Notes: generated by a model not told the origin, from the sequence alone. DNA of 64,000 nt from an uncultured Anaerolineae bacterium (GCA_964398185.1 CAYNML010000022.1:6877-70876); one strand, 5' to 3'; positions 5,489 through 37,623 are shown, counted from the stretch's first letter. A program made the numbers and translations.

Positions 5489-7474
5489 ATGACGCACAAA
5501 TCAAAGTCTACCTTGATGATCGTATTGATCGCAGCGCTGATGTTCAGCACGGCCTGCGGCAGCCCGGCGGCAACGAGTACGCCTGCCGCGCCGACGACCG
5601 CACTAACGACTGCGCCCGTCCAGTCGGCCACGGCGACGCCGGACACACCGCCCACCGCGGCGCCCACGCCAACGCCCGACGTTCCGGCTGAGCGCAGCGT
5701 GCAGCTGGACGCGCTGTATTATCAACAGACCGCCGATGGCGCACAGGGCGGCACCAGCCCCATTCAAGTCCGCATTCAGCCAGCCGCTCAACCGGGCCAG
5801 CTGCGCGTGGGCTTCTTTCAAGAAGAAGTGCAGGGCACCGGCAATCAATGGCAGAGCTCCGGCTGGATCGCGGTGCTGTTGGCCTCGCTGCTGGAAGGCA
5901 TCGATCCCACCAATTACGAGTACAGCTTCAGCAGCGGCGGCTGGATCGATGGGCCTAGCGCGGGCGGCCTGATGACCGTGGGCGTGCTGGCGGCGCTGCG
6001 CAATGAACAGGTGCGCGACGACGCGTCGATGACGGGCACGATCAATCCTGACGGCACCATCGGGCCGGTGGGCGGCATCCCACACAAGATCGACGGGGCC
6101 GCGAAAGCCGGCAAGAAGCTGATCCTGGTCCCAATCGGCCAGCGCTACGACTTCGATTCCAATCAACAGCAATTGGTCGATCTCGTCGAGGCCGGCCAGA
6201 AGGTGGGCGTGGAAGTGCGCGAAGTCGGCACGATCTTCGACGCGTACGAGCTGCTCACCGGCGAGACGCTGCCGCGCCCCGCGGCCGGCAGTGCGCCGCA
6301 GCTGCCGCCGCGCGCGTTCGATCGGATGCGGGCCAAGACGCTGGAGTGGATCGGCCGCTATCAGAAGACCCGCAACGAGTTCAACGCGCTGGTGCAGGAA
6401 GTGCAGGACCTCGTCGCTGATTACGCCTTATTGGCCGACGGCAAAGCCGCCGACGCGGACAAAGCGCTCAAGCAGGGGCTGGTAGCGGTCGCCTATGCCG
6501 ACGCTTCAGAAGCCGCCATCTACGCCCAGCTGGCTACCATGATGGGGCAGATCGTGCAAAACTATCTGATTGGCGGGCTGCAAAAAGCAGTCGACCAGTA
6601 CCAGGCCTCCAGCGCGGCGCAGACGGAACTGAAAGCAGTGATTGCCGCGTTGAAAGCGGAAGATCCCAAAACCGTCAGCGACATCCTGGCGCTAGCTGAC
6701 GCTTACAGCAACGTCGGCACAGCGGAAGGGCTGCTGATGATGGCCGACGGTGAAATCGCCAACATGGTGCAGAATGCCGATTCGCTGAGCGAGGAAGAAA
6801 TCTTGCAGGGCTTCACCGTGGCATCGCTGGAACAGGCGTTGGCCAGCGTCGTCATCCAGTACGCGCGCGATGCGGCGGACATCGGGCTGGGGTTTGGCAA
6901 GGCGCCCGTGCCCGATGCGGCGCGCGTGCAGCAGATCGCCGAAACGCTGCGCCGCGCCGCCGATTCCAACCTGGCTTTGTTTGATGCGATCATCGTCGAC
7001 GCCTACGCGCGGCAGACCGGTATGCATCCCGATGTCATCAAGAACATCCTGATGTCCAAAGAGACGAATTATCTCCTCGCCGTTGCGGCGCGGCAGGGCA
7101 TCGATGTCTTGAAGGATGAAGTCGGTCAGGGGCAGCCGCTCGCGGCCTTGACGTTCGGTCAATCGAATAACGCCTATGCGTTGTCGGCGGGGCTGTTGGC
7201 CAAGCATTACTCGCTGGGGGCGCAGGTCGACGAAAATCTCGACGTCGTCTCGTTCCAGCGCGAGAAGGCGCTGGGCGAGATGCTGGACTTTGCCGATCAA
7301 CGCGCGCGCGAATTGATCAACGCTGCCGGGGAAGATGCTTCGATCGCGGCGTTGTACTACTACGAACTGGGCCGCTCGCAGCGCCAGGGTGATCCGCAAG
7401 AGCAGCTGGATGCGCTGGGCTACTACTGGCAGGCGGCCATGCTGGCCCAGGCGGGCGCGTATCTGAGCAAGTAA
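5489..7474 (+). CDS. lipoprotein with Lon-like (peptidase S16) proteolytic domain plus large helical C-terminal domain
   Basis: Strong RBS AGGGAGG. Signal peptide with lipobox FSTAC. DGPSAGG...GGIPHKIDGAAKAGKK matches the Lon Ser-Lys dyad context. Confidence 0.7.
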   Translation: MTHKSKSTLMIVLIAALMFSTACGSPAATSTPAAPTTALTTAPVQSATATPDTPPTAAPTPTPDVPAERSVQLDALYYQQTADGAQGGTSPIQVRIQPAAQPGQLRVGFFQEEVQGTGNQWQSSGWIAVLLASLLEGIDPTNYEYSFSSGGWIDGPSAGGLMTVGVLAALRNEQVRDDASMTGTINPDGTIGPVGGIPHKIDGAAKAGKKLILVPIGQRYDFDSNQQQLVDLVEAGQKVGVEVREVGTIFDAYELLTGETLPRPAAGSAPQLPPRAFDRMRAKTLEWIGRYQKTRNEFNALVQEVQDLVADYALLADGKAADADKALKQGLVAVAYADASEAAIYAQLATMMGQIVQNYLIGGLQKAVDQYQASSAAQTELKAVIAALKAEDPKTVSDILALADAYSNVGTAEGLLMMADGEIANMVQNADSLSEEEILQGFTVASLEQALASVVIQYARDAADIGLGFGKAPVPDAARVQQIAETLRRAADSNLALFDAIIVDAYARQTGMHPDVIKNILMSKETNYLLAVAARQGIDVLKDEVGQGQPLAALTFGQSNNAYALSAGLLAKHYSLGAQVDENLDVVSFQREKALGEMLDFADQRARELINAAGEDASIAALYYYELGRSQRQGDPQEQLDALGYYWQAAMLAQAGAYLSK

Positions 7475-7589
7475 ATCACGTTCCCGCCAAACGCGTGAAA
7501 CCGGGTTTCGACAGGCATCTGCATTTCCAGGCGCAGGCAGCACAGGAGCCCGGTTTTTTCAATTGAGCTGCAAGTCAAAGGAGGAGACC

Positions 7590-9767
7590 ATGTTCAACAG
7601 CAATCGATCGATACGTTGGTTATTCGTTGCAGCGCTTAGCGCGGCGGCGCTGTTGATCAGCTTCGCCTCGATCAATCGAGCGTCGGCGCAGGACGCCGGG
7701 CCGCAAGCGCCGCAAGCTGCGGCGGGATCATCTTTCACATACCAAGGCCGCCTGATCAAAAACGGCCAACCCATCAGCGATGTCTGCGCGCTGAGCTTCT
7801 CGCTGTATGATGCTGCATCCGGCGGCAGTTTCCTCAACAGCAACACCTTCAACACCGTGCCCATCAGCAACGGGCTGTTCACCGTGCAGCTCGATTACGG
7901 GTCTGCCACCTTCAACGGCGACGAGCGCTGGATCGAAACGGCGGTGAAATGCACGGGCGATGCGAACTACATCACACTCAGCCCGCGCACCAGGTTGACC
8001 GCCGCGCCGTATGCCATCTATGCGTTGAACAATTGGGCGCTGAACGGCAACAGCGGCACGGGCGGCAGCGGCTTCATGGGCACCACCGATAACACCGCGT
8101 TAACGATCGGCGTGAACGGCCAGGCCGCGCTGCGCCTCTATCCGCAGCCGCAAAGTCCCAACATCATCGGCGGCTACAGCGGCAACGCCATCTCGCCGAC
8201 GACCTACGGCCAGACTATTGCGGGCGGCGGCGCGTTCTTTTACGAGAATCGCACGCTTAACACCTATGCCACGGTGGGCGGCGGGCGCAAGAATCAATCC
8301 GATGGGTACGGCGCGACCATTGCAGGCGGCATCGATAACCGCGCGAGCAACGATTACGCGGTCGTGGCGGGCGGGCTGAATAATCAGGCCACGGGCAGCT
8401 CGTCGGCCATCGGCGGCGGCTTCTACAACGTGGCCGCCGGTTACGTGTCTTACGTCGGCGGCGGCGATCTCAACCTAGCCATGACGCAGAATGCCACTAT
8501 CGGCGGCGGGTACAGCAACACCATCACGGGTGGTCAGCTGATCGCCAACAACACCATCGGCGGCGGTGTGTTCAATTTCAACTCCGGCTTTGCGGCGACG
8601 ATCGCGGGCGGGCACGGCAATCAAGCGACGGGCGAATGGGCGTCGCTGGGCGGCGGCGGCTTCAACACCGCGTCGAATCGTAGCGCCACGGTCAGCGGCG
8701 GCGAATACAACAACGCAGGTGGAGCGCGCGCCACCATCGGCGGCGGCGCGTACAACGTGGCCGCCGGGAGTGGATCGACGATCGGGGGTGGCGGCTATAA
8801 CGGCAGCGGCATCTTCGGCGGCAATCGCGCCAGCGGCACCGCGTCCACCATCGGCGGCGGCTATGGCAACGTCACCAGCATCGATGCGGGCTATGGCGCC
8901 ATTGGCGGCGGACAGCAAAATCAGATCAGCGCCACGGTCGGTACCAATCTCAACATCGCCACTATCGGCGGCGGCTTCAACAACAAGATTTCGCTGGGTG
9001 GCGGAACGATCGCGGGCGGCAACAGTAACACGGCCAGCGGCTTCGACGCGACCGTGGGCGGTGGCATCAATAACACGGCCAGTGGCGGAGCCTCGGTGGT
9101 GCCTGGCGGCTCCAGCAACCTGGCGCAGGGCAACACCAGTTTCGCCGCGGGCTATCGCGCCAAGTCCTACAACAACGGCTGCTTCACGTGGGCCGACTCC
9201 AACGATTTCGATTACGGCTGCACGCTCAACAATGCGTTCACGGCGCGCGCCACGGGCGGTGTGTACTTCGTCACGGGCATTAACGGTTCCGGCGGAACCA
9301 CGGCGGGCGTCACGGTGCCGGCCGGCGGCAATGCGTGGTCGGCCCTCAGCGATCGTAACAGCAAGGCCAACTTCGCGGCGGTAGATCCGCGCGCGGTGGT
9401 GGAAAAACTCGCGCAGATGCCGATCAGCACGTGGAACTACAAGACGCAGGCTGCGAGCATTCGCCATATCGGTCCGATGGCCCAGGACTTTGCCGCAGCC
9501 TTTGGCGTGGGCGAAGATGATACGCACATCAGCACCATCGATGCGGATGGCGTCTCACTGGCCGCGATTCAGGGACTTTATCAACTCTCGCTGGAAAAGG
9601 ATCAGCAGATCGCGCAGTTGCAAACGCGACTTGAAGCGCTGGAGAATCATGCCAACCCGATCGGTTCGGCGAGACCCCCCGGATTGATCGGGTTCATTGC
9701 CGGCGCCATGATCGGCCTGGGCGCCTTCTGGTTGGGAACTCGTCGAACACAAGGTGGTGTGCGATGA
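7590..9767 (+). CDS. secreted fibre-like protein: signal peptide, Hep_Hag-like Gly-rich beta-helix repeats, C-terminal peptidase S74 intramolecular chaperone domain
   Basis: AAAGGAGGAG RBS before ATG 7590. Signal peptide ...INRASA/QD. About 30 repeats of the xIGGGxxNxAxG type. C-terminus SDRNSKANFAAVDP...WNYK...GPMAQDF matches the S74 auto-cleaving chaperone (SDxxxK Ser-Lys). Confidence 0.7.
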   Translation: MFNSNRSIRWLFVAALSAAALLISFASINRASAQDAGPQAPQAAAGSSFTYQGRLIKNGQPISDVCALSFSLYDAASGGSFLNSNTFNTVPISNGLFTVQLDYGSATFNGDERWIETAVKCTGDANYITLSPRTRLTAAPYAIYALNNWALNGNSGTGGSGFMGTTDNTALTIGVNGQAALRLYPQPQSPNIIGGYSGNAISPTTYGQTIAGGGAFFYENRTLNTYATVGGGRKNQSDGYGATIAGGIDNRASNDYAVVAGGLNNQATGSSSAIGGGFYNVAAGYVSYVGGGDLNLAMTQNATIGGGYSNTITGGQLIANNTIGGGVFNFNSGFAATIAGGHGNQATGEWASLGGGGFNTASNRSATVSGGEYNNAGGARATIGGGAYNVAAGSGSTIGGGGYNGSGIFGGNRASGTASTIGGGYGNVTSIDAGYGAIGGGQQNQISATVGTNLNIATIGGGFNNKISLGGGTIAGGNSNTASGFDATVGGGINNTASGGASVVPGGSSNLAQGNTSFAAGYRAKSYNNGCFTWADSNDFDYGCTLNNAFTARATGGVYFVTGINGSGGTTAGVTVPAGGNAWSALSDRNSKANFAAVDPRAVVEKLAQMPISTWNYKTQAASIRHIGPMAQDFAAAFGVGEDDTHISTIDADGVSLAAIQGLYQLSLEKDQQIAQLQTRLEALENHANPIGSARPPGLIGFIAGAMIGLGAFWLGTRRTQGGVR

Positions 9768-11190: not shown

Positions 11191-12467
11191 GCTTGTGCTC
11201 CATGTGCCAGACGCGTCTTCAGTTGCTGTGCCAGTTTAACTTCGGCTTTGGCGGCTTTGATGGCCGACAGATCGATCGTTGGCGCGTTGATAAACCGCAT
11301 GAAACGCTGCAAACCGCGTGTCAACGCCGTGACAAACTGCGGCTCTTCGGCCAGGACGGCTGTTTCCAGCCACAGGCCGTTGATCACCAGGGTGTTCGTG
11401 CTGCGATCAAGCTTGGGATCGAACCGCGCCACTAATCGATCGCCGTACAGGATGGGCAGCGTGTAATAACCCCAGCGGCGCTGCTGAGCAGGTTTGTACA
11501 CTTCCCACACGTACTCGAAATCGAACCAGACCTTCGCTCGCCCGCGCGCGCTGACGATGTCGAGCGGCGCGAGAAAGGTGGCCTCTTCTTCAGTGGTCGT
11601 AGCGAGCGGCTGCCACTCCGCGGGAACGCCGCCCGCTTCAAGCGCGATCAACGCCGGAGCATCGGCGGCCAGGGCATACAACGGCTCTTTCCAATCCTCT
11701 GCTTGCAGCGACACGACCTCGCCGTGGTCAATCATCTTATTCAAGCGCCGCTGCCCTTCGTCGAGACTGACGCGCCGTTCGATGAAGCCCGCCCACGAAT
11801 TGGTAAATGTGCGCGCCCGGCTCAGCCCCATGAAGGCCAGCGCTTTGCGCGCAAAGAAATCCTCGGATTGCGCCACCGTAGCTGTGCGCTTCAAGCCGTC
11901 GGGCACGATATTCTGGCGGAAGTCAAACACCCGATCGAAGTTGCGGCGATGGTGCGTCATCAACTCGCCGGTGAGCCAGAGGAAATACATGGCAATCCCG
12001 CTGTCCTTGCTGGAGCGGTAATTGTCACCGTACGCCCGCCCCTCGAATTCGCGATTGCTCAGCGGGCCGCGCCGGCGCAGCTCGGTTTTCACTTCCTTGA
12101 TCAAATCCGGTTGCTGCGCGGCGAATCTGGCCCAACGCGGCTCCTGCCCCTTGCGCTGCATGACGCTGCGCCAGTAGGGCAGCTCGTCGATCGGGTAGAT
12201 GAAGATCGTACCGCCGTAGTCGAAGAACAGCCGATCGGCGTACAACAGCCGATCGAGCTGCTCCGGTTGATAGTCGATCACGCGGCTGTGCAGCGTCAAG
12301 TCGTGATTGCGCGCGATCGCGATCAGCGGATCGACCTGCACAGCTTCACACGCGCGCAGGGCCTGCGCCGTGCCAGCCAATCCCTGCCAACGCCGACCGG
12401 GCCACAAGCCCTGGCGGCCCAGCAGAAACCGTCGGGCGGTGGTACGACTGATCGTGAGATCAGACAT
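11187..12467 (-). CDS. winged-helix DNA-binding protein, YcaQ/AlkZ-like (DUF1006) putative crosslink-repair DNA glycosylase
   Basis: 426 aa. N-terminus RFLLGRQGLWPGRRW...QVDPL matches the YcaQ/HTH_42 family. Confidence 0.7.
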   Translation of the reverse strand: MSDLTISRTTARRFLLGRQGLWPGRRWQGLAGTAQALRACEAVQVDPLIAIARNHDLTLHSRVIDYQPEQLDRLLYADRLFFDYGGTIFIYPIDELPYWRSVMQRKGQEPRWARFAAQQPDLIKEVKTELRRRGPLSNREFEGRAYGDNYRSSKDSGIAMYFLWLTGELMTHHRRNFDRVFDFRQNIVPDGLKRTATVAQSEDFFARKALAFMGLSRARTFTNSWAGFIERRVSLDEGQRRLNKMIDHGEVVSLQAEDWKEPLYALAADAPALIALEAGGVPAEWQPLATTTEEEATFLAPLDIVSARGRAKVWFDFEYVWEVYKPAQQRRWGYYTLPILYGDRLVARFDPKLDRSTNTLVINGLWLETAVLAEEPQFVTALTRGLQRFMRFINAPTIDLSAIKAAKAEVKLAQQLKTRLAHGAQA

Positions 12468-12777
12468 CGGTGCTGATCTTTCCGGCCAGCGCGATGCGAA
12501 ACGGGAATAACTCCGCGTGCATGACGCCTTTTCGTACGGCCGGATCGCTGTTCATGATCGCTCGTGCCTGTTCCTCTGATTCAGTCTGAAAGATTGCGAT
12601 GCCAAACGTCCGCGGCGAGTCATCCTGCGTGCGCCCGACGAGCAGCATCACACCCTGCTCGGTCAACGCTGCCAGATGCGCCAAGTGCTCGCTCACGATG
12701 GCCTGTTCTTCCGGCGTCGGCCCGGCCGTGACCATTTCACTGCGTGCGGGTGTCAAACGATATAGAAACTGCAGCAT
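12460..12777 (-). CDS. YciI-like (Dabb) stress-responsive protein
   Basis: 105 aa. MLLVGRTQDDSPRTFGIAIF...AELFPF is the YciI fold signature. Confidence 0.65.
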   Translation of the reverse strand: MLQFLYRLTPARSEMVTAGPTPEEQAIVSEHLAHLAALTEQGVMLLVGRTQDDSPRTFGIAIFQTESEEQARAIMNSDPAVRKGVMHAELFPFRIALAGKISTDV

Positions 12778-12795
12778 GTCTTCCTCCCGAATCTT

Positions 12796-13299
12796 TCACG
12801 TGCGCTGCTGGTAGAGTTGGCTCACGGCATCGATCTGCCGATGGTGAAACGCCTCATGTCCGCCATAACTCAGTAACCATTCTGCACCGTTCATGGCTTC
12901 CTCGAAACCACCCTGATGACGCAGCGCAAGGTTGGCGTCGGCTGGCCAGTTCTCCAGCAATCGGCGTGTGAGCAGGCGCGTGCGCTCGAACCAGAAGAGG
13001 ATGGCGTCTTTGGGCAGGCCGTGCGGCGGAGGCGGCGGCAGAAATTCGATGCTCTCTGGCGGCTTGACGCCTTCCAGCAGCGGCCGCGCGATGTTCTCGC
13101 GCAGATGGTGTTCGTCAATGGCGATGTGCATGAAAATCTCGCCCAGCGACCATTCGTCGGCGCCGGTGTCGGCACGTTTGACACCGGGACGCCAATCGAG
13201 TTCTTCCTGCGTCAAGTTACGCAGTCGTCCCAATGTTTCAGTGCGGACTTCTTCGAGCCTGACTAGTATCGCGTGTGGATCGATCGGGTTGCCAGACAT
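12796..13299 (-). CDS. DinB/YfiT-like (DinB_2) metal-dependent four-helix-bundle protein
   Basis: His-rich motifs FMHIAIDEHHLRENI and GGHEAFHHRQID. Confidence 0.65.
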   Translation of the reverse strand: MSGNPIDPHAILVRLEEVRTETLGRLRNLTQEELDWRPGVKRADTGADEWSLGEIFMHIAIDEHHLRENIARPLLEGVKPPESIEFLPPPPPHGLPKDAILFWFERTRLLTRRLLENWPADANLALRHQGGFEEAMNGAEWLLSYGGHEAFHHRQIDAVSQLYQQRT

Positions 13300-13550
13300 G
13301 TTGTCCTCCTCGCATGGGTCTCAGTTGCAGAGTGTAACACACCACGCCCCGTCAAAAAAGGGACAGCGGTCAATGATCATCTTGATCATCGACCGCTGTT
13401 CGTGTTGACACCCGGTTCATGCGCTGTAGCGCACCCCACCGCTGCGGTTTCCCCAGAGAGTACGATCCGGTCTCAACCGGTCATGGAAAGTGCAGTGGAC
13501 GCGTGAGCGATGCGGCCCGCCAGCGCAGCGGCAGCGTTACCGGGGTCAAC

Positions 13551-13838
13551 CTATCCGGCGATATGCCATGTGTTGTGGCGCAAATCCTGATAGATGTTGT
13601 ACGTCCCTTCGGCGCACCGCACCTGAAAGTAGTGACGATCCAGCTGGCCGCCGTTGCGGCGCGAAGCCGTGGTCCAGCAGCGCTCCACGGCCTCCACCTG
13701 AAACTCGCGGCCGCGCCACACAAAGGTGCGCGGGAAATAGCCGAAGCGCCGCGAGCGCATGTCAATGGCCTCGGTTCCCCGGCGCTTCATGATCGGTTTC
13801 ACTTCCGTTTTGGCATTACCAAACAGACTCAGGCTCAT
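13551..13838 (-). CDS. hypothetical small protein (start uncertain; alternatives at 13790 and 13901)
   Basis: GAGGAG about 10 nt upstream of ATG 13838, inside the 3' end of the upstream membrane gene (coupling). Cys/Trp-containing C-terminal motif ERCW...RHYFQVRCAEGTYNIYQDL. No family recognised. Confidence 0.4.
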   Translation of the reverse strand: MSLSLFGNAKTEVKPIMKRRGTEAIDMRSRRFGYFPRTFVWRGREFQVEAVERCWTTASRRNGGQLDRHYFQVRCAEGTYNIYQDLRHNTWHIAG

Positions 13839-14202
13839 GGTAGACGATCTCCTCTTCACCAATGGTGGTAAATTCACGCTGCGCCGCAGGTGCACGGCCA
13901 CCTGGCGCCGCCGACACGACTTGCAGCGCGGCCGGATACGTTACGGCTCCCGTTAGACCTTGATAGGCGGGTGACGGCATGACTACGGTGGGCGGCGGCG
14001 AGGTGTACGCCCGATCGGAATGGCGCTGCGCCTTCACGGCCCAGCCGATCACCAATCCGATCGGGAACGCGGCCATGCCGCCGAAGATCACACCCGCCAT
14101 GAACGCCAGCGTCTGTTCGCTCAAGCGGCTGCCGATCACGCCCCCGGCCACCAGAATGAAAGTCACCAATCCTAACGCAACGTACCACGGCCAATATTTC
14201 AT
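13816..14202 (-). CDS. small membrane protein (two predicted TM helices)
   Basis: N-terminal hydrophobic segments WYVALGLVTFILVAGGVIG and FMAGVIFGGMAAFPIGLVIGW. Begins 4 nt after the FtsK-like gene stop. Confidence 0.5.
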   Translation of the reverse strand: MKYWPWYVALGLVTFILVAGGVIGSRLSEQTLAFMAGVIFGGMAAFPIGLVIGWAVKAQRHSDRAYTSPPPTVVMPSPAYQGLTGAVTYPAALQVVSAAPGGRAPAAQREFTTIGEEEIVYHEPESVW

Positions 14203-14205
14203 GAC

Positions 14206-15360
14206 TTATCGATCGATACCCGGCAGCGCGAAGACGGCGCTATCCAGCACAGAATTCCTGGTGCGCGCTACGGAGGTCACGGTACTCGGCCTGCCCGATT
14301 GAATGATCTCGTCCCCGCGGATGCCTTGCGCCAGTTGTTGCACGCTCGCTTCAATTTCATTCGCCGAAGTGTAGGCTGCTTGAAACCGGATCAAGCCCGG
14401 TCCATACACCGCCACAAAGTCACCGCGCCCCGTCAACTTCTCTGCCCCCGTGCCGCCTACTCCGGCGGCGACGCGTGCGTCCTCGGCGCTAACGACATGC
14501 CCCACCAACCTCACCGGGAAGTTGGCTTTCACCAGCGGGCCAATGATGGAACTCGACGGTTTCTGCGTTGCGCCGATGACGTGGATGCCGGCCTCGCGTC
14601 CGCGCTGTACCAGCCGTCCCAGGCCCTCGAGAATCGCCGGGCCGCCCGTCTGCACCAGATCGGCCAACTCGTCGATCGCTACAACGATGCGCGGATCAGT
14701 CACCCGCGATCGATCGCGCTGTTCCATCAGGTTCACCAGATCGCCGAGGGCCTGCACCGCCTGATCGGGTTGTGTCACGATGCCCGATGATAGTGCGGGG
14801 CACGCTGTCGGGCGCAGGAGGTGCGGCAGGCGGGCCATCGGCTCGAAGGCGCGGCCCTTCGGATCGATCAGCACGAACTGCAGCTGGCGGCGGTGATTCA
14901 ACAGCGCCAGCGACAGGATGATGGTCTGCATCAGCGCGGTCTTGCCGGAGCCCGTCGTGCCCGCCACCAACACGTGCGCCACTTCCGGCGAAGGCAGGCG
15001 GATCAGCAGCGGCGCACCATCGTCGGCCAGGCCCAGCACCGCCGTGCCAAACGGGATGCGCGAGGGCGGAATGCGGGCGCAGAGCGGCAGCAGTTTCAGC
15101 GGCTGTGGATCGCTGCGCGGCACTTCGATGCGCACGGCATTGCCCTGTGTGGTCACGCGCGCGCTCGGCGCACCCAGCGCCACGGCGATTTCGCGCGACA
15201 ACGACTCCACGCGGCTGATCTTCACTCCGGGGTTGGTCTGCAATAGGAACTGCACCCAGCGCGGCGTGACGTGGCCGCCGGTCACACGGGCCGGAGCCTT
15301 GTGTTCGTGAAGCACCATTTCGATGGCATCTGCTTTCGCTTCCAGTTCACGCCGCTGCAT
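14206..15360 (-). CDS. FtsK/SpoIIIE-family DNA-translocase motor domain protein (no TM anchor, no gamma domain)
   Basis: Alpha/beta motor (PGVKISRVESLSREIAVALGAPSARV), Walker A VAGTTGSGKT, Walker B IVVAIDELADL. 384 aa only. Confidence 0.8.
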   Translation of the reverse strand: MQRRELEAKADAIEMVLHEHKAPARVTGGHVTPRWVQFLLQTNPGVKISRVESLSREIAVALGAPSARVTTQGNAVRIEVPRSDPQPLKLLPLCARIPPSRIPFGTAVLGLADDGAPLLIRLPSPEVAHVLVAGTTGSGKTALMQTIILSLALLNHRRQLQFVLIDPKGRAFEPMARLPHLLRPTACPALSSGIVTQPDQAVQALGDLVNLMEQRDRSRVTDPRIVVAIDELADLVQTGGPAILEGLGRLVQRGREAGIHVIGATQKPSSSIIGPLVKANFPVRLVGHVVSAEDARVAAGVGGTGAEKLTGRGDFVAVYGPGLIRFQAAYTSANEIEASVQQLAQGIRGDEIIQSGRPSTVTSVARTRNSVLDSAVFALPGIDR

Positions 15361-15488
15361 GGGATCGTCTCCTCGAAGGTTGTGCCAGGCGTTCTGCGCG
15401 GAATGAAGTGCAGTCGAAGAACGCGGCTGTGATGGTGGGCATCCTTCGACTTCGCTGTGCTCCGCTCTGGATGCCTGCTGATGTCAGG

Positions 15489-16097
15489 CTAGTGTACGCG
15501 CCGAATGACGGCGACAACACGGCCTTGAATTTCGAGATTTTCCGGATGGGTGTAGATCGGGCCAAGCGAGGGATTGGCCGGCTGCAGTCGCACGCGATTC
15601 GGTTCGCGGAAGAAATACTTCAACGTTGTCTCATCGCGATCGATCAAGCGGGCGGCCACCATGTCGCCGTTCTTCGCTTCGGCCTGTTTTTTCATCACGA
15701 CGATGTCGCCGTCGTCCACCATCGCGTCGATCATCGATGTGCCGCGCACCTTGAGCGCGAACAGACCGTCTTGCTCCGGCACGATGTCGCGCGTCAGCAC
15801 CAGCGCTTCGTTGGCTAAATCCGCGAAGGACATCGTCGGCAAGCTGGCGCCGATCGAGCCGACGTAGGGCACGCTAAAGGCTTCGGCCTGCACCAGGCGC
15901 AGACCGCGCGGTGTGGCGCGATCGCGGCTGATAAAGCCGGCTTCCTCCAGCGCGGTCAGGTGATAATCCACCAGCGATTTGGTGGACAGTCCCAGTCCGC
16001 TGCGGATTTCTTCATAGGTGGGCGGGTAATGCTGCCGCGCCATGAAGTCTTCAATAAAGGTGAGAATCTGCTGTTGTTTGACGGTCAGGGGTTTCAT
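15489..16097 (-). CDS. lexA: LexA repressor (paralog 1)
   Basis: LexA winged-HTH LTVKQQQILTFIEDF...PPTYEEI. S24 peptidase with AlaGly-like cleavage region and Ser/Lys (GTSM...KK). Start set at MKPLTV, which has an upstream RBS. Confidence 0.88.
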   Translation of the reverse strand: MKPLTVKQQQILTFIEDFMARQHYPPTYEEIRSGLGLSTKSLVDYHLTALEEAGFISRDRATPRGLRLVQAEAFSVPYVGSIGASLPTMSFADLANEALVLTRDIVPEQDGLFALKVRGTSMIDAMVDDGDIVVMKKQAEAKNGDMVAARLIDRDETTLKYFFREPNRVRLQPANPSLGPIYTHPENLEIQGRVVAVIRRVH

Positions 16098-16148
16098 TTC
16101 TGTCCTTTCGACGAGCGGCTGCGAGTTGGAATGTTGTTGGGAGAAATA

Positions 16149-16160
16149 GAACGCTCGTTC
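16149..16160. promoter_or_regulatory. Cheo-type SOS box GAACGCTCGTTC upstream of lexA paralog 1
   Basis: GAAC-N4-GTTC 52 bp upstream of the lexA1 start. A weaker half-site repeat GCACGTTTGTTC lies at 16172-16185. Confidence 0.6.
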
Positions 16161-16253
16161 GAGTCTATTATAGCACGTTTGTTCTAGTGTCAATAGAACA
16201 AATCCTTAAAAAAACGCGGGTCTTCCGACTTTGGCGGGAAACCGTCGGTGCAT

Positions 16254-16399
16254 CGTCATTGCGAGCGCTTTCGCCAGGCGCGCCCCCGCGCATAGCGCGG
16301 ACAGGGCGTGCGAAGCAATCTCCTTTCGACCGGTACTGAGATTGCTTCGTCGCGAACAGCGCTCACCTGCCCCGCGCCGTTGGCGGGGTCGCAATGACG
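16254..16399. repeat. nested-palindrome REP-like element, family A copy 1 (CGTCATTGCGAG...CTCGCAATGACG with inner GAAGCAATCTC...GAGATTGCTTC)
   Basis: Outer and inner inverted repeats read directly. Related copies at 27296-27372 and 57037-57123. Confidence 0.7.
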
Positions 16400-16508
16400 C
16401 ACGTTGGTGACAATAATCCCGCTGAACCCGGAAGAGCCAAAAACGCGAAAACGCCCGATCGGGCTGAGCTGACCGATCGGGCGTTGGCAGGAACGCAGAG
16501 AAGAAGCG

Positions 16509-17159
16509 TTACGCGGGTTTGTTGGGATGCCGGATCACGAGAACGACGCGGCCCTGTACTTCAACGTTTTTGGGATCGGCAAAGATGGGCGACATCGTCG
16601 GGTTGGCAGGCTGCAAGCGCACCCTGCCCTTTTCGAGATAGAAGCGCTTGAGGGTGGTTTCTTCGCGGTCTTTCAGCCACACAGCCACCAGCTCGCCATT
16701 GTCGGCCTTCTGACGCTGCTGCATGACCACGATGTCGCCGTCGCCGATCATCGCGTCGACCATCGAGTCGCCGCGCACCTGCAGGGCGAACAGGCCCTTG
16801 TCGTCCAGCGGCAGCAGTTCGCGCGTCAGTTCGATCATCTCGTCGCCAAGGAGAGCGAAATCAGAATTGGGTACGGGCATTGGTTCGCCAGCGGCGATGC
16901 GGCCCAGCACCGGAATCCGGATTGTCTCGATGGGCGCGGCTTCGGCCTCATCAGTCACCAGCTTGATGCCGCGCGAAATGGTCTTGTCGCGTGCAATGTG
17001 CCCCTGCTTTTCCAGGACGTTCAGGTTGTAGTTGACCACCGAGGTTGACGAAATCCCCACGGATTTTCCGATTTCGCGGATGGTGGGCGGGTACTTGGTG
17101 CGGCCGGAAAAATCGCGGATGAAGTCCAAAATGGCTTGCTGGCGATCGGTGAGTGTCAT
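16509..17159 (-). CDS. lexA: LexA repressor (paralog 2)
   Basis: LTDRQQAILDFIRDF...PPTIREI wHTH plus S24 peptidase domain. 216 aa. Confidence 0.88.
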   Translation of the reverse strand: MTLTDRQQAILDFIRDFSGRTKYPPTIREIGKSVGISSTSVVNYNLNVLEKQGHIARDKTISRGIKLVTDEAEAAPIETIRIPVLGRIAAGEPMPVPNSDFALLGDEMIELTRELLPLDDKGLFALQVRGDSMVDAMIGDGDIVVMQQRQKADNGELVAVWLKDREETTLKRFYLEKGRVRLQPANPTMSPIFADPKNVEVQGRVVLVIRHPNKPA

Positions 17160-17355: not shown

Positions 17356-19050
17356 TCAGGTGGGCAGCGGGGTAGTGCACGGCACGGTAAACTGCACGGT
17401 TGTGCCCTTGCCGACTTCACTGGTGGCCCAGATTCTGCCGCCGTTGCGCTGCACCATTTCCTGGCAGATGATCAAGCCCAGACCGGTGCCGGGCTCGTTC
17501 TCGGTGCCGACCGTGCTGTGCTGGGTATCAATGCGGAACAGATTCGCCAGGACGGCGTCGGTCATGCCCACGCCCGTGTCCTGCACGGCGATGGTGACAA
17601 AGCCGGGCAGCCGATACGCGCTGCCGGTATGTGCGCTGAGCGTGACTTGTCCGCCGCGCGGGGTGAACTTCAGCGCATTGCCGGCGAGGTTGCGCATGAC
17701 GGTTTCCAGCATGTTCCGATCGGCGTGTACCCACAACCCCGGCTCGATGGTGTGGCTGAGTGCGATCTCTTTCTGGGCAGCGACCGGGTCTAAGACGCGA
17801 TGCACGGTGCGCACGACCTCGATCAACTCAAGCGGTTCAGGGTTGTACGCGAGGCCGCCTTCACGCTGCAAGCGTGACCACGTCAACAGGTTCTCCAGCA
17901 GGTTGTAGACCGCGCGCGCGCCGTGATGTATGCTCTGGGCGATGTTCTTGAGTTCGGCCGGGCTGGCCGTATCGACGGACTTGAGCAGGAACTTGGCGTT
18001 GCCCAGCACAATGTTGAACGGGCTGCGCAGATCGTGCGAGATGATCGAGAAGAATTTGTCCTTGTCGGCGTTCAGCCGCGCCAGGGCCTGGGCTTTTTCC
18101 TCTTCCGCGCCGCGCAGATCTTTTTCGAGTTTGTAGACCAGCGCATTGCCGATGGCGATGGTGATCTGGTTGGCCAGCATCTGCAGGACCTGCTGATCTT
18201 CGGCGTCGAAAGCGGCCGGCTGCTCGCTCCAAATGTCCAGCGCGCCGATGGTCTGCTGCCCCACGCGCAGCGGCAGCACAATTTGGGAGCGCATCTGCGG
18301 CGGGCCTTCGGGGCGCAGCGATTCCGGCACGTCGGCGACGTTGCCGATGAGCACCGCTTCGCCGCTGCGGCAGACGCACGCTACGACGCTGGCGGCGCCG
18401 TCGAGCGGGATCGAAAAATCGGGGCTGGAGAGCTGGCCGTTGAAATCGATCCCTGCGCGCAGCAGGACCTTGTCGTGGCGATCGCTCAACAGCCAGATGC
18501 CGACGAAGTAATAGCCAAACCGGGATTGAATGGACTTGACCACCGCCGTCAGCAGTTCGTTCATATCGAGGATGGACGTCACCTGCTGGCTGATCTGACT
18601 GCTGGCCTCCAATTCGTTCGCGCGCTTGGACAACACGGCGTTCGCCTGCTGCACGGCCCGGCGCTGCTGGTACAACTCGACGAAGATCTTCAGCTTGCTG
18701 AGCAGAATCTCTGGCACGAAAGGCTTGCTCATGAAGTCGACCGCGCCCGCTTCGTAGCCCTTGCGGTGGTGATACTCGTCGGAAAAAATGGCGCTGACGA
18801 AGATGACGGGCAGGGTGGCCGTGCCTTCATTGCTGCGCAGCAGCTCGACCAGTTCATAACCGTCCATGCCCGGCATCTGAATGTCCACCACAGCCACGCA
18901 GAAATCGTGCTCCAGCACCAATCCCAGCGCTTCCGGCCCGGAGAGCGCCTCAAGCACGTCGACGTCCAGGCTCTTGAGCAGCTTGTTCAGCGCGAACAAG
19001 TTCTCCGGCTTGTCATCCACGATGAGGATTTTGGGGCGATCGAGTTTCAT
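17356..19050 (-). CDS. response-regulator receiver + GAF + histidine kinase (HisKA/HATPase_c)
   Basis: REC (ILIVDD...DVLEALSG...D), GAF region, H-box SIISHDLRSP, HATPase G-boxes (GTGLGL). Confidence 0.85.
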   Translation of the reverse strand: MKLDRPKILIVDDKPENLFALNKLLKSLDVDVLEALSGPEALGLVLEHDFCVAVVDIQMPGMDGYELVELLRSNEGTATLPVIFVSAIFSDEYHHRKGYEAGAVDFMSKPFVPEILLSKLKIFVELYQQRRAVQQANAVLSKRANELEASSQISQQVTSILDMNELLTAVVKSIQSRFGYYFVGIWLLSDRHDKVLLRAGIDFNGQLSSPDFSIPLDGAASVVACVCRSGEAVLIGNVADVPESLRPEGPPQMRSQIVLPLRVGQQTIGALDIWSEQPAAFDAEDQQVLQMLANQITIAIGNALVYKLEKDLRGAEEEKAQALARLNADKDKFFSIISHDLRSPFNIVLGNAKFLLKSVDTASPAELKNIAQSIHHGARAVYNLLENLLTWSRLQREGGLAYNPEPLELIEVVRTVHRVLDPVAAQKEIALSHTIEPGLWVHADRNMLETVMRNLAGNALKFTPRGGQVTLSAHTGSAYRLPGFVTIAVQDTGVGMTDAVLANLFRIDTQHSTVGTENEPGTGLGLIICQEMVQRNGGRIWATSEVGKGTTVQFTVPCTTPLPT

Positions 19051-19071
19051 CTAAGTCACACGGCAACAACT

Positions 19072-24360
<5,289 letters not shown>

Positions 24361-24400
24361 TCACCGCGTCCTCGCGGACGGCGAGCAGGATAATAAAAAT

Positions 24401-24979
24401 CTACTGAACGATCTTCACGAACAACTTGCCGATTTCCGGCACGGCTAAGATGTGATCAACCGGCGCGGCTTCCAGCGCAGCTTGCGGCATGTACGTGCTC
24501 TCGGCCGTGCGCGGATCCTGCACCACCGCCAAGCCGCCGCGTTCCTTGATTTTTCGCAAGCCCGCGGCCCCATCGTTATTCGCACCCGTCAGCACCACGC
24601 CCACGACGTGCGCGCCATAAGCCTGCACTGCGCTCTCGAACAGCACGTCGATGGCGGGCCGGCAGAAGTTCACGCGCTCGTCGATGGACAACGAGAAGGT
24701 GTGATCCTTTTCGATCAGCAGATGATAATTCGGCGGGGCCAGATAGATCGTGCCTGGCTGAATCGCTTCTTTCTCATCGGCCTCTTTTACTCGTAGCGCG
24801 CACAGGCTGTCCAGTCGTGCCACGTGCGAACTATCCTGCCGCGGATGCAGATGCACCACAATCGCGATCGGGAGCGGGTATCCCGCCGGGAGCGTGGGCA
24901 GCAGTTCGGTCAGCGCCGTCAGCGCGCCGGCCGATCCACCGATGACGATAATCTGATTGAACCTGTCAGGCGAGGTCAT
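24401..24979 (-). CDS. cheB: CheB-type chemotaxis protein-glutamate methylesterase catalytic domain (no receiver domain)
   Basis: IVIGGSAGALTAL...VVLTGANNDGAAGL matches the CheB_methylest catalytic domain. Confidence 0.85.
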   Translation of the reverse strand: MTSPDRFNQIIVIGGSAGALTALTELLPTLPAGYPLPIAIVVHLHPRQDSSHVARLDSLCALRVKEADEKEAIQPGTIYLAPPNYHLLIEKDHTFSLSIDERVNFCRPAIDVLFESAVQAYGAHVVGVVLTGANNDGAAGLRKIKERGGLAVVQDPRTAESTYMPQAALEAAPVDHILAVPEIGKLFVKIVQ

Positions 24980-25859
24980 GGGTCTGTCGCTGGCCGCGCT
25001 TCTGATAGATGCTGGCGCGCTCGTCGATGGTCTTGAATTGATCGATCGCCGCAGAATACTGCAGCGATTCCTTGCTGCCCAGACAGAGGAACCCGCCCGG
25101 CGCTAGGCTCGCGGCGAACAGCCCCAGCACGCGCTGCTGCAAGTCCTTGTCGAAATAGATCAGCACGTTGCGGCAGAAGATCACTTGCACTTCGCTGAAG
25201 ACGCCGTCGGTGGCCAGGTTGTGACTGGCGAAAGTGATGCGGCGCTTCAACGCCGGATCCATGATGGCCAGTTCGTACTTGGCGTGGTAGTAGTCAGCGA
25301 ACGATCGAATGCCGCCGGCGCTGAGGTAGTTCAGCGAATATTGGCGCATGTCCTTCAGCGAGTAGATCCCCTCACGCGCTTTGTCCAGCACCGCGTCGTT
25401 GTAGTCCGTGGCGAAAATCGTCGCGCGCTCGTACAACCCCTCTTCCTGGAGCACGATGGCCAGCGAGTATACCTCTTCGCCCATGGCGCAGCCGGCATGC
25501 CACACGCGGAGGTAGGGATAGGTCTTCAAGTAGGGGACGACGGTCTGGCGGAAGGCGCGGTAGAAATCGGGGTCGCGGAACATCTCGGTGACGGCGATCG
25601 AGAAACCCTGAATGGCGGTCTGCGAAAAACCTTCATCGTACAGCAGGCGGGGGATCATCTCCGTGACGCGGGTGCAGCCGGTGATTTCCAACAGGCGCTG
25701 CACCCGGCGCTTGACCGAGGCGCGGGCATAATGCCGGAAGTCGTAGCCGTAGCGCTGAAAGATCGCCTCTAAAAACAGATTGATTTCGATGTCTTCAATA
25801 TCGTCTGGTTCCGTCACGGACATGGGCGGTCGCTCTCGGCGCCAATCAGCGAGCCTCAA
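24966..25859 (-). CDS. cheR: CheR-type protein-glutamate O-methyltransferase
   Basis: CheR N-terminal helical region and SAM-MTase core (RVWHAGCAMGEEVYSLAI...IFCRNVLIYF). An alternative internal start lies at MSVTEP (25823). Confidence 0.85.
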   Translation of the reverse strand: MRLADWRRERPPMSVTEPDDIEDIEINLFLEAIFQRYGYDFRHYARASVKRRVQRLLEITGCTRVTEMIPRLLYDEGFSQTAIQGFSIAVTEMFRDPDFYRAFRQTVVPYLKTYPYLRVWHAGCAMGEEVYSLAIVLQEEGLYERATIFATDYNDAVLDKAREGIYSLKDMRQYSLNYLSAGGIRSFADYYHAKYELAIMDPALKRRITFASHNLATDGVFSEVQVIFCRNVLIYFDKDLQQRVLGLFAASLAPGGFLCLGSKESLQYSAAIDQFKTIDERASIYQKRGQRQTHDLA

Positions 25860-26118
25860 TTTCTTTGATTAAGAATCTTTAATACAAAAAAGTATAGTCG
25901 AATTTTGTCCCCGCAATGTTGCACTTCCATTTCAGAACCATTTCAGTTTGGCCCTGCGCGCGGGTGAGGATTGCACGACCGGGCATTGGCGGAACAAGAG
26001 TTTGCGCGAGGTTGGGCACGCGGCAGAAAGCGCGTCCGCGGTCTAGCCGGCATTCGTCAGGCCTGCGGTTTCACGTTATAATGAGCTTACCCCCACCCTT
26101 TTCAACAGGAGCATAGCC

Positions 26119-35379: not shown

Positions 35380-35742
35380 ATGTCCTGGACAGCCGAAGAA
35401 ATGCACATCTATCAAAAGACGGCGCTAAAACGCCACCAAGCCGCCAGACAGCAGGTGGCACAGCGCCGCGCACGGGCGTGGGAATTGGCACGGCAAGCGG
35501 CCGAGCGCCTGAAGACCGAGTTCGGCGTCGAGCGGGTGATGGCCTTTGGCTCATTGATACACGCCGATCGATTTACGGAATGGTCAGACGTCGATCTGGC
35601 AGTGTGGGGGCTGACCAATCACAATTGGTTACGGGCCTCAGCGGCGGTGGGCTACGGTGACATTGAAATCAACCTGGTTGATGTGCAGAGCTGCCAACCG
35701 GAGTTACTGGCCAGCATTGAGCGCGAAGGAGTGCCGCTATGA
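35380..35742 (+). CDS. nucleotidyltransferase (MNT-type) antitoxin
   Basis: MAFGSLIHADRFTEWSDVDLAVWG nucleotidyltransferase motif. Confidence 0.75.
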   Translation: MSWTAEEMHIYQKTALKRHQAARQQVAQRRARAWELARQAAERLKTEFGVERVMAFGSLIHADRFTEWSDVDLAVWGLTNHNWLRASAAVGYGDIEINLVDVQSCQPELLASIEREGVPL

Positions 35743-36239
35743 TTCCGCGTTATCGCTTGTTGGCGGCTCGCATTCGAGCCGAGTTGCCAACGTTGGAGCG
35801 CAGCGTCGCGCAAACCGAGGGCGCCTTATTGCGCGCCGAACGGCAACCGGCTGATCAATCTTACTTTGTCGCGGCGGTGGCCTTCGAACTACACAGTTTT
35901 TACGCCGGTCTGGAGCGCCTGTTTGAATTGATTGGCAGCGACGTCGAACAAAGCCGCCCCTCCGGCGCGGCGTGGCATCGTAACCTGCTGACGCAAATGG
36001 CGCTGCCCATCACTGACGTGCGCCCCGCCGTCATACAGACCGAGACACAGACTGCTCTATTGGAATATCTGGAATTTCGACATGTGGTGCGGCACATGTA
36101 CACGTTCAATCTGCGGATCGATCGCGTCACCGAGTTGGGGCGGAGCTTACGTCCGGCCTTTGATCTGGCCCGCCGTGATTTGTTGCGGTTCGCAGAATTC
36201 CTCGATGGGTTAGCGACCGCCGATGAGGCTGGCCTGTAA
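35739..36239 (+). CDS. HepT-like (DUF86/HEPN) RNase toxin
   Basis: 4-nt overlap with the MNT gene. R-X4-H-X-Y motif in FRHVVRHMY. Confidence 0.7.
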   Translation: MIPRYRLLAARIRAELPTLERSVAQTEGALLRAERQPADQSYFVAAVAFELHSFYAGLERLFELIGSDVEQSRPSGAAWHRNLLTQMALPITDVRPAVIQTETQTALLEYLEFRHVVRHMYTFNLRIDRVTELGRSLRPAFDLARRDLLRFAEFLDGLATADEAGL

Positions 36240-36251
36240 AGCACACGGTCA

Positions 36252-36335
36252 CTCGGCGCGGGCGGGAAGTAGATCGCGTTCATTCATCCGTCCAGCGCGA
36301 ACGGGGTGCTGGTGGAGTTGTATCAGAACGCTTGA
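36252..36335. repeat. direct repeat DR-R: decayed copy of the epimerase 3' end (contains an in-frame TAG)
   Basis: Four mismatches relative to 35120-35203, including AAG to TAG. Confidence 0.8.
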
Positions 36336-36508
36336 GAATCAGCGAGTCAGCGAATCAGCGAAGGGGAGAGGTTCCCTTTCGCTGATTTTTGTTTTGCTTT
36401 GCGACTCCAGACCGACATTGCCCATGTGCAGCAATTTCACACTGCCAAGAGGTTGAAAGTATAATAATTGCACTCGCTTTGAGCCTTTCGAAAAGGTGAT
36501 GGTTATTC

Positions 36509-37621
36509 ATGTCTACAGATCATTTCTTCGATGAAACCACTGAGCAGTCAACTGTTAAAACCGCGATAGTGTCGAAGTACTTTTGGGCTTGGGCAAAGGT
36601 AATAATGCCGACAGCCAAGAAAGGTCCTGGAAGAATTGCCTACATTGACTTGTTTGCTGGACCCGGTCGCTACAAGGACGGAACAAAATCCACGCCTGTA
36701 CTCATTTTGGAGAAGGCGATACAAGATGCGGATATGCGCCGAATGCTTGTTACGATGTTTAATGACAAAGACGAAGATAACTCACGTTCATTAGAGAAAG
36801 CAATCCGCGAGTTGCCGGGAATTGAAACACTAAAGCACCGGCCTCAAATCAGCACACAGGAAGTCGGTACTGAGCTCGTCAAAATGTTTGAGCGGATGCG
36901 GTTAGTGCCGACCCTGTTCTTTGTTGATCCTTGGGGATACAAGGGTCTGTCGCTTCGGTTGGTCAACTCGGTGTTAAAGGATTGGGGCTGTGACTGCATC
37001 TTTTTCTTTAACTACAATCGCATCAGCATGGGACTCAATAACGATCTGGTGCGCGAACACATGAATGCATTGTTTGGGCAGAAGCGCGCGGATGAATTGC
37101 GGTTAAGAATGGAGCCGCTTCAGCCACACGAACGTGAGCTGGTCATCGTGGAAGAAATCTGTCAAGCACTGAAAGAAATGGGCGGTGCATATGTCTTGCC
37201 GTTTCGCTTCAGGAACTATCTCGGCAGTAGAACAAGTCATCACTTGATATTTGTCAGCAAGCATCCCAAGGGCTACGAAATCATGAAAGAGATTATGGCC
37301 CAACTAAGTTCTTCTAGCGAGCAAGGAGTGCCCTCTTTTGAATATAGCCCTGCGGATAAGCGACAGCCGTTGTTGTTTGAATTGTCCCGCCCGTTGGACG
37401 ATTTGGAGGAAATGCTCGTCTCAGATTTCGCAGGTAAAACGTTGACGATGCAGCAGATCTACGAAAGTCATAACGTCGGTAGACCGTATATCAAACGGAA
37501 TTATAAAGATGTATTGATGAAGTTGGAGGCAAGTGGTACGATTAAAGTAGAACCGCATCGTAAAGGTACTTTTGGCGACAATGTCGTTGTCACATTTCCA
37601 CAAAAACGCGGGGGCAAGTAG
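36509..37621 (+). CDS. tcmP: TcmP-like (three-Cys-motif partner protein) family protein
   Basis: 370 aa. TATAAT and AAAAGGTGA upstream. Motifs DLFAGPGRY and [10 protein letters not shown]. Immediately followed by a three-Cys Gp37/Gp68-family gene, the defining context I recall for the TcmP family. Confidence 0.65.
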
Positions 37622-37623
37622 AA

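Follow-up and report, generated by a model that had tools for sequence, protein, structure and literature searches.

Reversible methylation of glutamate residues by CheR and CheB is a textbook mechanism of sensory adaptation that, to our knowledge, is known only where chemoreceptors signal through CheA. Additional CheR/CheB pairs that play no part in chemotaxis, such as CheR3/CheB3 of Pseudomonas putida, are encoded in many genomes, and the question is what such pairs modify. We addressed it at a locus of an uncultured Anaerolineae bacterium (GCA_964398185.1 CAYNML010000022.1:6877-70876; this whole stretch of 64,000 nucleotides is called the window). Four tightly spaced minus-strand genes at positions 17356-25859 encode, based on open reading frame (ORF) calls and Pfam, a CheR, a CheB, a hybrid sensor kinase and a second kinase with a receiver (REC) domain and a GAF domain. 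The first-pass annotation had given this gene order, which the ORFs reproduce, and had described CheB as a catalytic domain that lacks REC, in agreement with Pfam, which finds CheB_methylest alone. It had further suggested that Glu/Gln-rich coiled coils of the hybrid kinase are possible substrates of the two enzymes. We lean towards a narrower version of this idea, in which the substrate would be the second coiled coil (CC2), a long helix between a GAF domain and the dimerization and histidine phosphotransfer (DHp) domain of the kinase.

To assess the association from the kinase side, we ran a reverse test that started from the GAF-CC2 module, with the pattern EEL[RK]x[ATS]NEEL and one genome per species. 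This yielded at least 600 pattern matches, at least 366 of them confirmed by tblastn, and the best 80 of these were analyzed as species-level loci. They come from Chloroflexota, Bacteroidota, Pseudomonas/Stutzerimonas, Leptospira interrogans, Clostridium, Bacillaceae, Desulfobacterota, Myxococcota, Nitrospirota and others. CheR is encoded within 10 kb of the kinase in 60 of the 80 loci, CheB in 49 and both in 48. Within the same distance, none of the 80 encodes the MCPsignal domain of methyl-accepting chemotaxis proteins (MCPs) or a CheW-like protein, the CheW seed having had no positive control; CheA was not found in these loci either. In the subset of 54 loci whose flanks reach at least 5 kb on each side, CheR is present in 46 and CheB in 39; for CheR this corresponds to a binomial P of ~6e-70 at an assumed base rate of 2%.

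The most common arrangement is hybrid kinase, cheR, cheB and second kinase on one strand (K-R-B-k2; 22 of the 80 loci), and cheR usually abuts the kinase. The order found in the window (R-B-K-k2) recurs in four loci, Leptospira included; the Leptospira locus (L064) is not LvrA/LvrB by NCBIfam score. A relative whose CheR is 64% identical carries this succession of cheR, cheB, PBP/GAF hybrid kinase (PBP, periplasmic-binding protein) and REC kinase as well, set between entirely different flanks, gatCAB and xseAB. In other Chloroflexota loci, cheR-cheB is followed by one to several GAF-CC2 proteins, in some by two hybrid kinases. On this comparison, the window operon is an Anaerolineae (Chloroflexota) member of a cassette that is spread over many phyla. 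The proposal that these CheR and CheB proteins are tied to a type of kinase and not to an MCP is borne out by a cassette that is kept across phyla, between unrelated flanks and with no MCP or CheW within 10 kb.

The arrangement is not a new kind, as homologous cassettes are described in Pseudomonas (PMC4951495, PMC8175716). In the cfcABCDE cluster of P. putida KT2440, CfcA (PP_3761) is a multisensor CHASE3/GAF hybrid kinase and CfcB/CfcC are CheR3/CheB3 (PMC4951495). The diguanylate cyclase CfcR depends on CfcA for its activity (PMC4951495; PMC6849547), and His496 of CfcA, which lies within ANMSHEL, has been mutated (H496A; PMC4951495). The bmsA cluster of P. alkylphenolica and the P. fluorescens group likewise runs hybrid kinase-CheR-CheB-hybrid kinase ('hybrid histidine kinase 3079'; PMC8175716). 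Four Pseudomonas loci among ours (L061, L072, L084 and L086) match the GAF-helix-DHp module of the window by tblastn at 39-41% identity over ~260 aa (E 1e-43 to 4e-48), the closest being L061 (41%, E 4e-48, order K-R-B-k2). All four encode a CHASE3-GAF-HisKA-HATPase-3xREC kinase with the CC2 motif, followed by CheR, CheB and a REC kinase. Their link to CfcA rests on the published domain description, the context of H496 and primer matches. The arrangement has thus already been described genetically in Pseudomonas, and the window differs in its sensor and gene order.

Both enzymes of the window, CheR as an S-adenosylmethionine (SAM)-dependent protein-glutamate methyltransferase and CheB as the catalytic domain of a methylesterase/deamidase, retain the residues needed for catalysis. 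CheR aligns with Bacillus subtilis CheR (5ftw) and keeps its SAM-binding motifs (WhAGCamGEEvYS, atD and CRNVliYF), and the Ser-His-Asp triad of CheB aligns with that of Thermotoga maritima CheB (3sft), with GGSaG (the Ser of GxSxG), vvHl and nnDG kept. With SAM-binding motifs and catalytic triad intact, both are predicted to be active enzymes. Against the CheRs that adjoin CC2 kinases, the median score of the window CheR is 301 bits, versus 79-108 bits against the chemotaxis CheRs in the PDB. For CheB, the median is 175 bits against the CheBs of homologous loci and 97-119 bits against solved chemotaxis CheBs. The NCBIfam models give 93 bits for CheR (cut-off 435) and 157 bits for CheB (cut-off 342). 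None of the 49 CheBs of homologous loci has a receiver domain, and no C-terminal extension occurs among the CheRs of those loci. Because the bit scores are high within kinase-linked loci, low against chemotaxis enzymes and below the NCBIfam cut-offs, CheR and CheB are assigned by sequence to a dedicated kinase-associated (CheR3/CfcB-like) subfamily that appears to be inherited together with the kinase.

We searched the window for chemotaxis partners with Pfam (44 ORFs) and with phmmer (all ORFs of at least 60 aa), the phmmer seeds being the Tsr signalling domain and Escherichia coli CheW. Neither method found MCPsignal, CheW or CheA in the 64 kb, as the first-pass annotation had reported; the MCP seed had a working positive control and the CheW seed had none. 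That control was the one MCP seen, an 818-aa HAMP and MCPsignal protein at the related locus L008 (2455-4911), which is on a Nitrospiraceae contig. It is encoded two genes upstream of a HAMP-GAF-CC2 kinase and a CheR-CheB fusion, and the contig ends right after the fusion. One could suppose that the window enzymes are ordinary chemotaxis enzymes for MCPs encoded elsewhere in the genome, their adjacency to the kinase reflecting co-regulation. The L008 arrangement and the intact catalytic motifs of both enzymes fit such a scheme, and our survey of this genome covered the 64 kb of the window. However, an MCPsignal ORF is absent within 10 kb in all 80 loci and from the window, the enzymes, which score far below the NCBIfam cut-offs for CheR and CheB, belong to a subfamily of their own, and none of the CheBs has the receiver domain through which CheB is coupled to CheA. 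Moreover, CheR3/CheB3 of P. putida are cited in a passage of PMC4951495 as having no chemotaxis role. We regard this explanation as quite improbable.

If the substrate is in the kinase, which part of it carries the modified residues? Two peptides had been quoted as examples of Glu/Gln-rich coiled coil, and both exist in the protein: EAAEAAQQEAETARRATEEA at residues 792-811, in the first coiled coil, and AGELQVQEEELRAANEELAAQAENL at residues 989-1013, in CC2. A word-indexed homologue search with the 105-aa second coiled coil returned just five short matches and was superseded by an exhaustive phmmer search of 1.84 billion representatives, for which residues 975-1079 served as the query. The latter gave 1313 matches at E ≤ 1e-3 and 218 at E ≤ 1e-10. 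Among the best 150 matches, a kinase core lies downstream in 140 and the same GAF domain as in the window kinase upstream in 136, and none is fused to CheB or CheR.

CC2 (AGELQVQEEELRAANEEL...) is the most conserved stretch of the GAF-CC2 module. The family consensus contains ...ELLEKTQQQAEELQAQQEELRAANEELEEQTEALKESEEELKAQQEELEATNEELEEK..., and the heptads in the conserved module read QEEELRAANEELxxQ (NEEL heptads below). Across 264 distinct sequences, Leu recurs at each seventh residue from 992 to 1055 with at least 90% conservation. The other core position, between these Leu residues, is polar (Q996, N1003 at 98%, T1010, E1017, Q1024, N1031 at 99%, T1038 and N1052 at 99%). The Glu pairs are conserved to a similar degree, namely E997 90%, E998 93%, E1004 87%, E1005 94%, E1035 87% and E1036 86% in the same 264 sequences, and the near-invariant columns are Q995, E997, E998, L999, N1003, E1004, E1005, L1006, Q1009 and L1013. 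In the predicted heptad register, Leu occupies position d, Asn/Gln/Thr position a and a small residue position g, which places Glu-Glu at the solvent-exposed positions b and c. The candidate methyl-accepting sites are the pairs E997/E998, E1004/E1005 and E1035/E1036; the distal Glu residues E1026 and E1033 are single. An AlphaFold monomer model (22-sequence alignment, mean pLDDT 89.9) shows an N-terminal helix, the GAF domain and then an uninterrupted helix from residue 952 to 1078 that runs into DHp. The proximal heptads of the window protein, EELRAAN and EELAAQA, are intact.

The first coiled coil is different. It is rich in Glu, Gln and Ala, helical, and contains one loose match to a methylation site (AAQQEAET), so one may ask if the methylation site lies there, at residues ~792-811 (EAAEAAQQEAETARRATEEA). 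However, the family alignment has no conserved columns before W821, only the ...QMWQxxGQ... end of this segment being conserved, and homologues have HAMP-linked or unrelated charged helices in its place. A methylation site in the first coiled coil is extremely unlikely, and we rejected it as a substrate because of this lack of conservation. Of the two coiled coils originally put forward, the second is thus supported, with near-invariant Glu pairs predicted to be exposed, and the first is not.

Proteins that carry CC2 and no kinase are instructive. At one Chloroflexota locus (L009), cheR-cheB is followed by four paralogous membrane proteins of ~450 aa (transmembrane region-helix-GAF-CC2) and then by two kinases. 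The four proteins, encoded at 11431-16886 between cheB and the CC2 kinase, have no kinase domain and end directly after CC2. They look like stand-alone receptors with a putative methyl-accepting helix, and because they end where they do, CC2 is probably more than a linker to DHp. A similar short protein precedes the kinase at another locus (L022). In the family as a whole, the sensors that Pfam finds N-terminal to the module include CHASE3, 4HB_MCP_1, dCache_1, NIT, HAMP and MASE11.

Independently, the same heptads occur in proteins in which the two enzymes are fused. All 120 CheB-CheR-PAS-PAS_10 fusions (KEGG K13924) contain five to nine in-phase EE[LM] heptads, the NEELQS-type run lying ~200 residues past the CheR domain. 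The explicit motif EE[LM]xxxNEE[LM], represented in the window kinase by EELRAANEEL, is present in 120 of the 120 fusions and in 99 of 101 CC2 ORFs, and in none of the 9395 other ORFs of the fetched loci (1.28 million residues). This background count replaced a comparison of profiles, which we rejected as proof of homology between CC2 and the coiled coil of the fusions after a control with reversed sequences. What CC2 and the fusions have in common is the explicit motif and its link to CheB/CheR.

A number of observations weigh against methylation of CC2. In that control, the reversed fusion sequences matched the CC2 profile in 108 of 120 cases at E ≤ 1e-3 (best E 5.4e-13 for native and 1.6e-6 for reversed sequences). 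The profile similarity between CC2 and the coiled coil of the fusions is thus partly compositional, and because reversed sequences also match, the two coiled coils are not established as homologous. The window helix itself keeps just two proximal EEL heptads, the distal ones reading AELETVN and VELEEKA. The scan with the MCP signal-domain HMM suggested in the first-pass annotation detected MCPsignal neither in the kinase as a whole (E ≤ 0.01) nor in the two coiled coils taken separately, even at E ≤ 10; at the latter threshold, the isolated coiled coils matched just generic eukaryotic coiled-coil families of Pfam. Resemblance to the methylation heptads of MCPs, also claimed, stands in its loose form and fails in its strict one. 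Matches to [ASTG]xx[EQ][EQ]xx[ASTG] occur (for instance AANEELAA, the family consensus being [AST]-N-E-E-L), but the strict consensus [ASTG]2-x2-[EQ]2-x2-[ASTG]2 has zero matches in all four proteins, and the pattern EExxA[ST] has none. The predicted fold differs as well. The model shows one continuous helix at 952-1078 and not the hairpin of MCPs, so that the putative substrate would be a parallel two-stranded helix and not the antiparallel four-helix bundle on which CheR and CheB act.

Genetic and distribution data add to these objections. The authors of PMC4951495 remark, from unpublished work, that the other cfc mutants kept the CfcA-dependent crinkly phenotype, which implies that kinase activity as such does not depend on CheR or CheB. 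We found no report in the literature that shows or proposes methylation of such a kinase, although the idea may have been voiced elsewhere. Finally, 8 of the 54 loci with full flanks have no cheR nearby. At the loci that lack a nearby cheR, the motif is not degenerate. One metagenome-assembled genome (MAG), JBMOLU01 (L011, L013 and L014), encodes at least four CC2 kinases, and cheR-cheB was seen at L011 alone. This distribution suggests that one cheR-cheB pair serves several JBMOLU01 kinases in trans.

Several of these points would fit a different target. CheR and CheB may act on another component of the cassette or pathway (the REC-GAF kinase, a receiver, a GAF domain or a downstream regulator), with CC2 as a rigid helix. 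In its favour, most loci also encode a second kinase that starts with REC, kinases commonly have long helical linkers between sensor and DHp, the MCP consensus is missing from CC2, and the similarity scores of CC2 are partly compositional. On the other hand, the second kinase is absent from many K-R-B loci, and neither the CC2 motif nor conserved acidic heptads are found in it. At L009, the genes that come after cheR-cheB encode kinase-less GAF-CC2 proteins, and the NEEL heptads are the sole element in common with the CheB-CheR fusions. Based on these points, we consider such a target, the main rival to CC2, rather unlikely.

A further possibility accepts the helix and disputes the chemistry. 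CheR, CheB or both may dock on the NEEL helix as regulatory partners or to be tethered, with no covalent modification. Chemotaxis CheR and CheB use tethering sites on receptors (the NWETF pentapeptide), and association data of the kind presented here cannot separate binding from modification. Yet both enzymes keep their catalytic residues throughout the subfamily, and the conserved residues of the helix are Glu pairs, exactly what CheR and CheB modify in MCPs. Docking alone therefore seems improbable.

If CC2 is the substrate, we infer the following sequence of events. CheR would methylate, and CheB demethylate, Glu pairs on the kinase's own signalling helix. Neutralization of their charge would shift the stability or the register of a weakly packed coiled coil with polar a layers. 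The shift in the helix would change the balance between kinase and phosphatase activity and reset the output after stimulation of the PBP or GAF domains, and the result would be chemotaxis-style adaptation or gain control with no MCP, CheA or CheW. As CheB lacks a receiver domain, feedback would have to come from conformation-dependent availability of the substrate and not from phosphorylation of CheB.

By its motif, the NEEL helix is also recognized at the C-terminal end of GAF receptors that have no kinase and within CheB-CheR fusions, and it extends to more than 1300 representative clusters at 50% identity. We judge the case to be evenly balanced for a widespread adaptation module that dispenses with MCPs, in which this CheR subfamily and a receiver-less CheB would reversibly methylate the Glu pairs of the NEEL helix between GAF and DHp. 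A conserved CheR/CheB subfamily is now linked to a sharply defined helix motif in sensor kinases. Because candidate residues can be named (E997/E998, E1004/E1005 and their equivalents in CfcA), the question is directly testable in a tractable organism. If the proposal is true, two-component kinases could adapt by covalent modification, and models of their dose-response and temporal behavior would change, including those for the control of biofilm and cyclic di-GMP in Pseudomonas. If it is refuted, the cassette remains a conserved multi-kinase unit.

The genes and domains of the operon are given in Table 1.

Table 1. Coordinates of the genes in the cheR-cheB-kinase operon and of the domains in its hybrid kinase (positions in the window).
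Feature	Position (strand)	Length or residues	Evidence
cheR	24966..25823 (-); ORF extends to 25859	285 aa from MSVTEPDD	Pfam CheR_N + CheR, E 6.5e-41
cheB	24401..24979 (-)	192 aa	Pfam CheB_methylest only, residues 11-185, E 5.7e-58
Hybrid sensor kinase	19072..24330 (-)	1752 aa from ATG; 1762 aa from TTG at 24360	Pfam
Second kinase, CfcD-like fourth gene	17356..19050 (-)	564 aa	Pfam REC-GAF-HisKA-HATPase
Divergent intergenic region 5' of cheR	25824..26118	295 bp	
LacI-type periplasmic-binding-protein-fold sensor	23428..24267 (-)	residues 32-311	Peripla_BP_1, Peripla_BP_3, Peripla_BP_4
First GAF	22105..22527 (-)	residues 612-752	Pfam GAF, GAF_2
First coiled coil / N-terminal helix of second GAF	21862..22083 (-)	residues ~760-833	AlphaFold helix 2-38 of model
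Second GAF, part of GAF-CC2 module	21508..21861 (-)	residues ~834-951	GAF_2; AlphaFold
CC2, one continuous predicted helix of ~127 residues, GAF to DHp	21127..21507 (-)	residues 952-1078	AlphaFold helix 157-283
NEEL-heptad core TQQQAGELQVQEEELRAANEELAAQAENLRASEAKLRANQAELETVNVELEEK	21250..21408 (-)	residues 985-1037	Conservation + motif count
HisKA/DHp, phospho-acceptor His1085 in FLANMSHELRTP	20932..21135 (-)	residues 1076-1143	Pfam HisKA; sequence
HATPase_c	20422..20790 (-)	residues 1191-1313	Pfam
Three receiver domains	19090..20238 (-)	residues ~1375-1757	Pfam Response_reg, 3 stretches

The genes are spaced as would be expected for an operon, with a 14-nt overlap between cheR and cheB, 70 nt between cheB and the kinase, and 21 nt between the two kinases. 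The true start of cheR is most likely the MSVTEPDD start at 25823; the resulting protein is 100% identical to a database protein (P0006). Public gene calls start the hybrid kinase at the ATG. Upstream, the operon is flanked by a divergent acyl-CoA dehydrogenase gene, and a single weak resemblance to a promoter, a consensus match only, lies at 26105-26078 (minus strand) in the region 5' of cheR. Downstream is a LexA-like gene with its own 12/12 sigma-70 consensus. These two flanks delimit the operon to four genes.

Neither a transmembrane segment nor a signal peptide was found in the hybrid kinase, so its LacI-type PBP domain is expected to be cytoplasmic, as had been proposed. The stretch of ~290 residues from the PBP domain to the first GAF (residues ~320-610, about 22530-23400) has no Pfam match and may form an uncharacterised sensor or linker domain. 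NCBIfam assigns no specific family to the kinase, its matches to BarA, TorS, HrmK and LvrA all being far below cut-off.

The window contains several other features. Two LexA-like genes (LexA_DNA_bind + Peptidase_S24) lie in tandem on the minus strand at 15489-16193 and 16509-17159, the sigma-70 consensus of the second being at 17314-17286. A short FtsK/SpoIIIE-like gene, DinB_2 and an AlkZ-like glycosylase beside them make up a DNA-damage neighbourhood. An OmpR-type response regulator (REC + Trans_reg_C; 53509-54192, plus strand) is encoded 30 kb from the operon, and a 1030-aa BTAD-NB-ARC-TPR regulator of the SARP/AfsR-like STAND type is encoded at 2045-5137 (minus strand). At 38542-41403 (plus strand), a UvrD/PcrA helicase carries an intein (Intein_splicing/Hint, about aa 247-462). 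The GC content dips to 0.50 at 35739-38355, a segment with HepT-like, GMT-wHTH and DUF5131 genes that is possibly a small mobile or defence islet. The plus strand at 5489-9767 encodes a 661-aa protein with a Lon_C-like stretch only and a 734-aa protein that ends in Peptidase_S74, an endosialidase chaperone domain typical of phage tail fibres.

How does the cassette compare with known systems? With Tar/Tsr adaptation it has in common homologous enzymes with intact active-site motifs, heptad-spaced Glu-Glu pairs on a long helix beside small residues and, in relatives, receptor-type sensors. The Tsr heptads EQQAASL/EETAASM/EQLTATV may be compared with EELRAAN/EELAAQA/ENLRASE of the window kinase. 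Unlike in Tar/Tsr, CheB has no receiver, and the kinase and the putative methyl-accepting helix form one protein, with no recruitment through CheW. Pathways with alternative cellular functions, such as Wsp and the CheR-TPR clusters, likewise employ CheR/CheB to control outputs other than motility, and multidomain REC proteins are frequent among them (PMC3447774). They keep MCP, CheW and CheA, all three of which are absent from the window cassette, and their CheR often carries a TPR domain.

Two kinds of fused enzymes are closer in one or the other respect. Like the window genes, the K13924 fusions are found outside che operons, and at one locus (L003) a fusion sits among PAS/GAF kinases. They have the B-R order fused to a putative substrate helix of five to nine near-perfect NEELQS heptads, with PAS_10 and no GAF, whereas the window has separate genes in the R-B order and no PAS_10. 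Their CheR domain is distantly related to the window CheR (median 110 bits). The closest fused relatives are the two-domain CheR-CheB fusions (R-B order in 31 of 31), with ~53% identity to the window enzymes. They adjoin GAF/PAS hybrid kinases with CC2, as in the window (for instance P0030 and P0015, from Nitrospirota MAGs), and differ in being single polypeptides of ~470-530 aa.

The nearest described counterparts are the cfc and bms clusters. CfcR, a REC-GGDEF/EAL regulator, is unlinked to the cfc cluster in P. putida, and no GGDEF response regulator equivalent to it was found by Pfam among the 44 window ORFs scanned. The window operon and the Pseudomonas clusters have in common the four gene types, a GAF domain directly before HisKA/HATPase with three C-terminal REC domains, the H-box ANMSHEL that is mutated in CfcA H496A, cheR and cheB next to the kinase and in its orientation, and a second kinase with a receiver domain at its start (CfcD). 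They differ in the sensor, which is a cytoplasmic LacI-type PBP domain with an extra GAF in the window and a periplasmic CHASE3 domain in cfc, in gene order (R-B-K-k2 versus K-R-B-k2) and in phylum, the window belonging to Chloroflexota.

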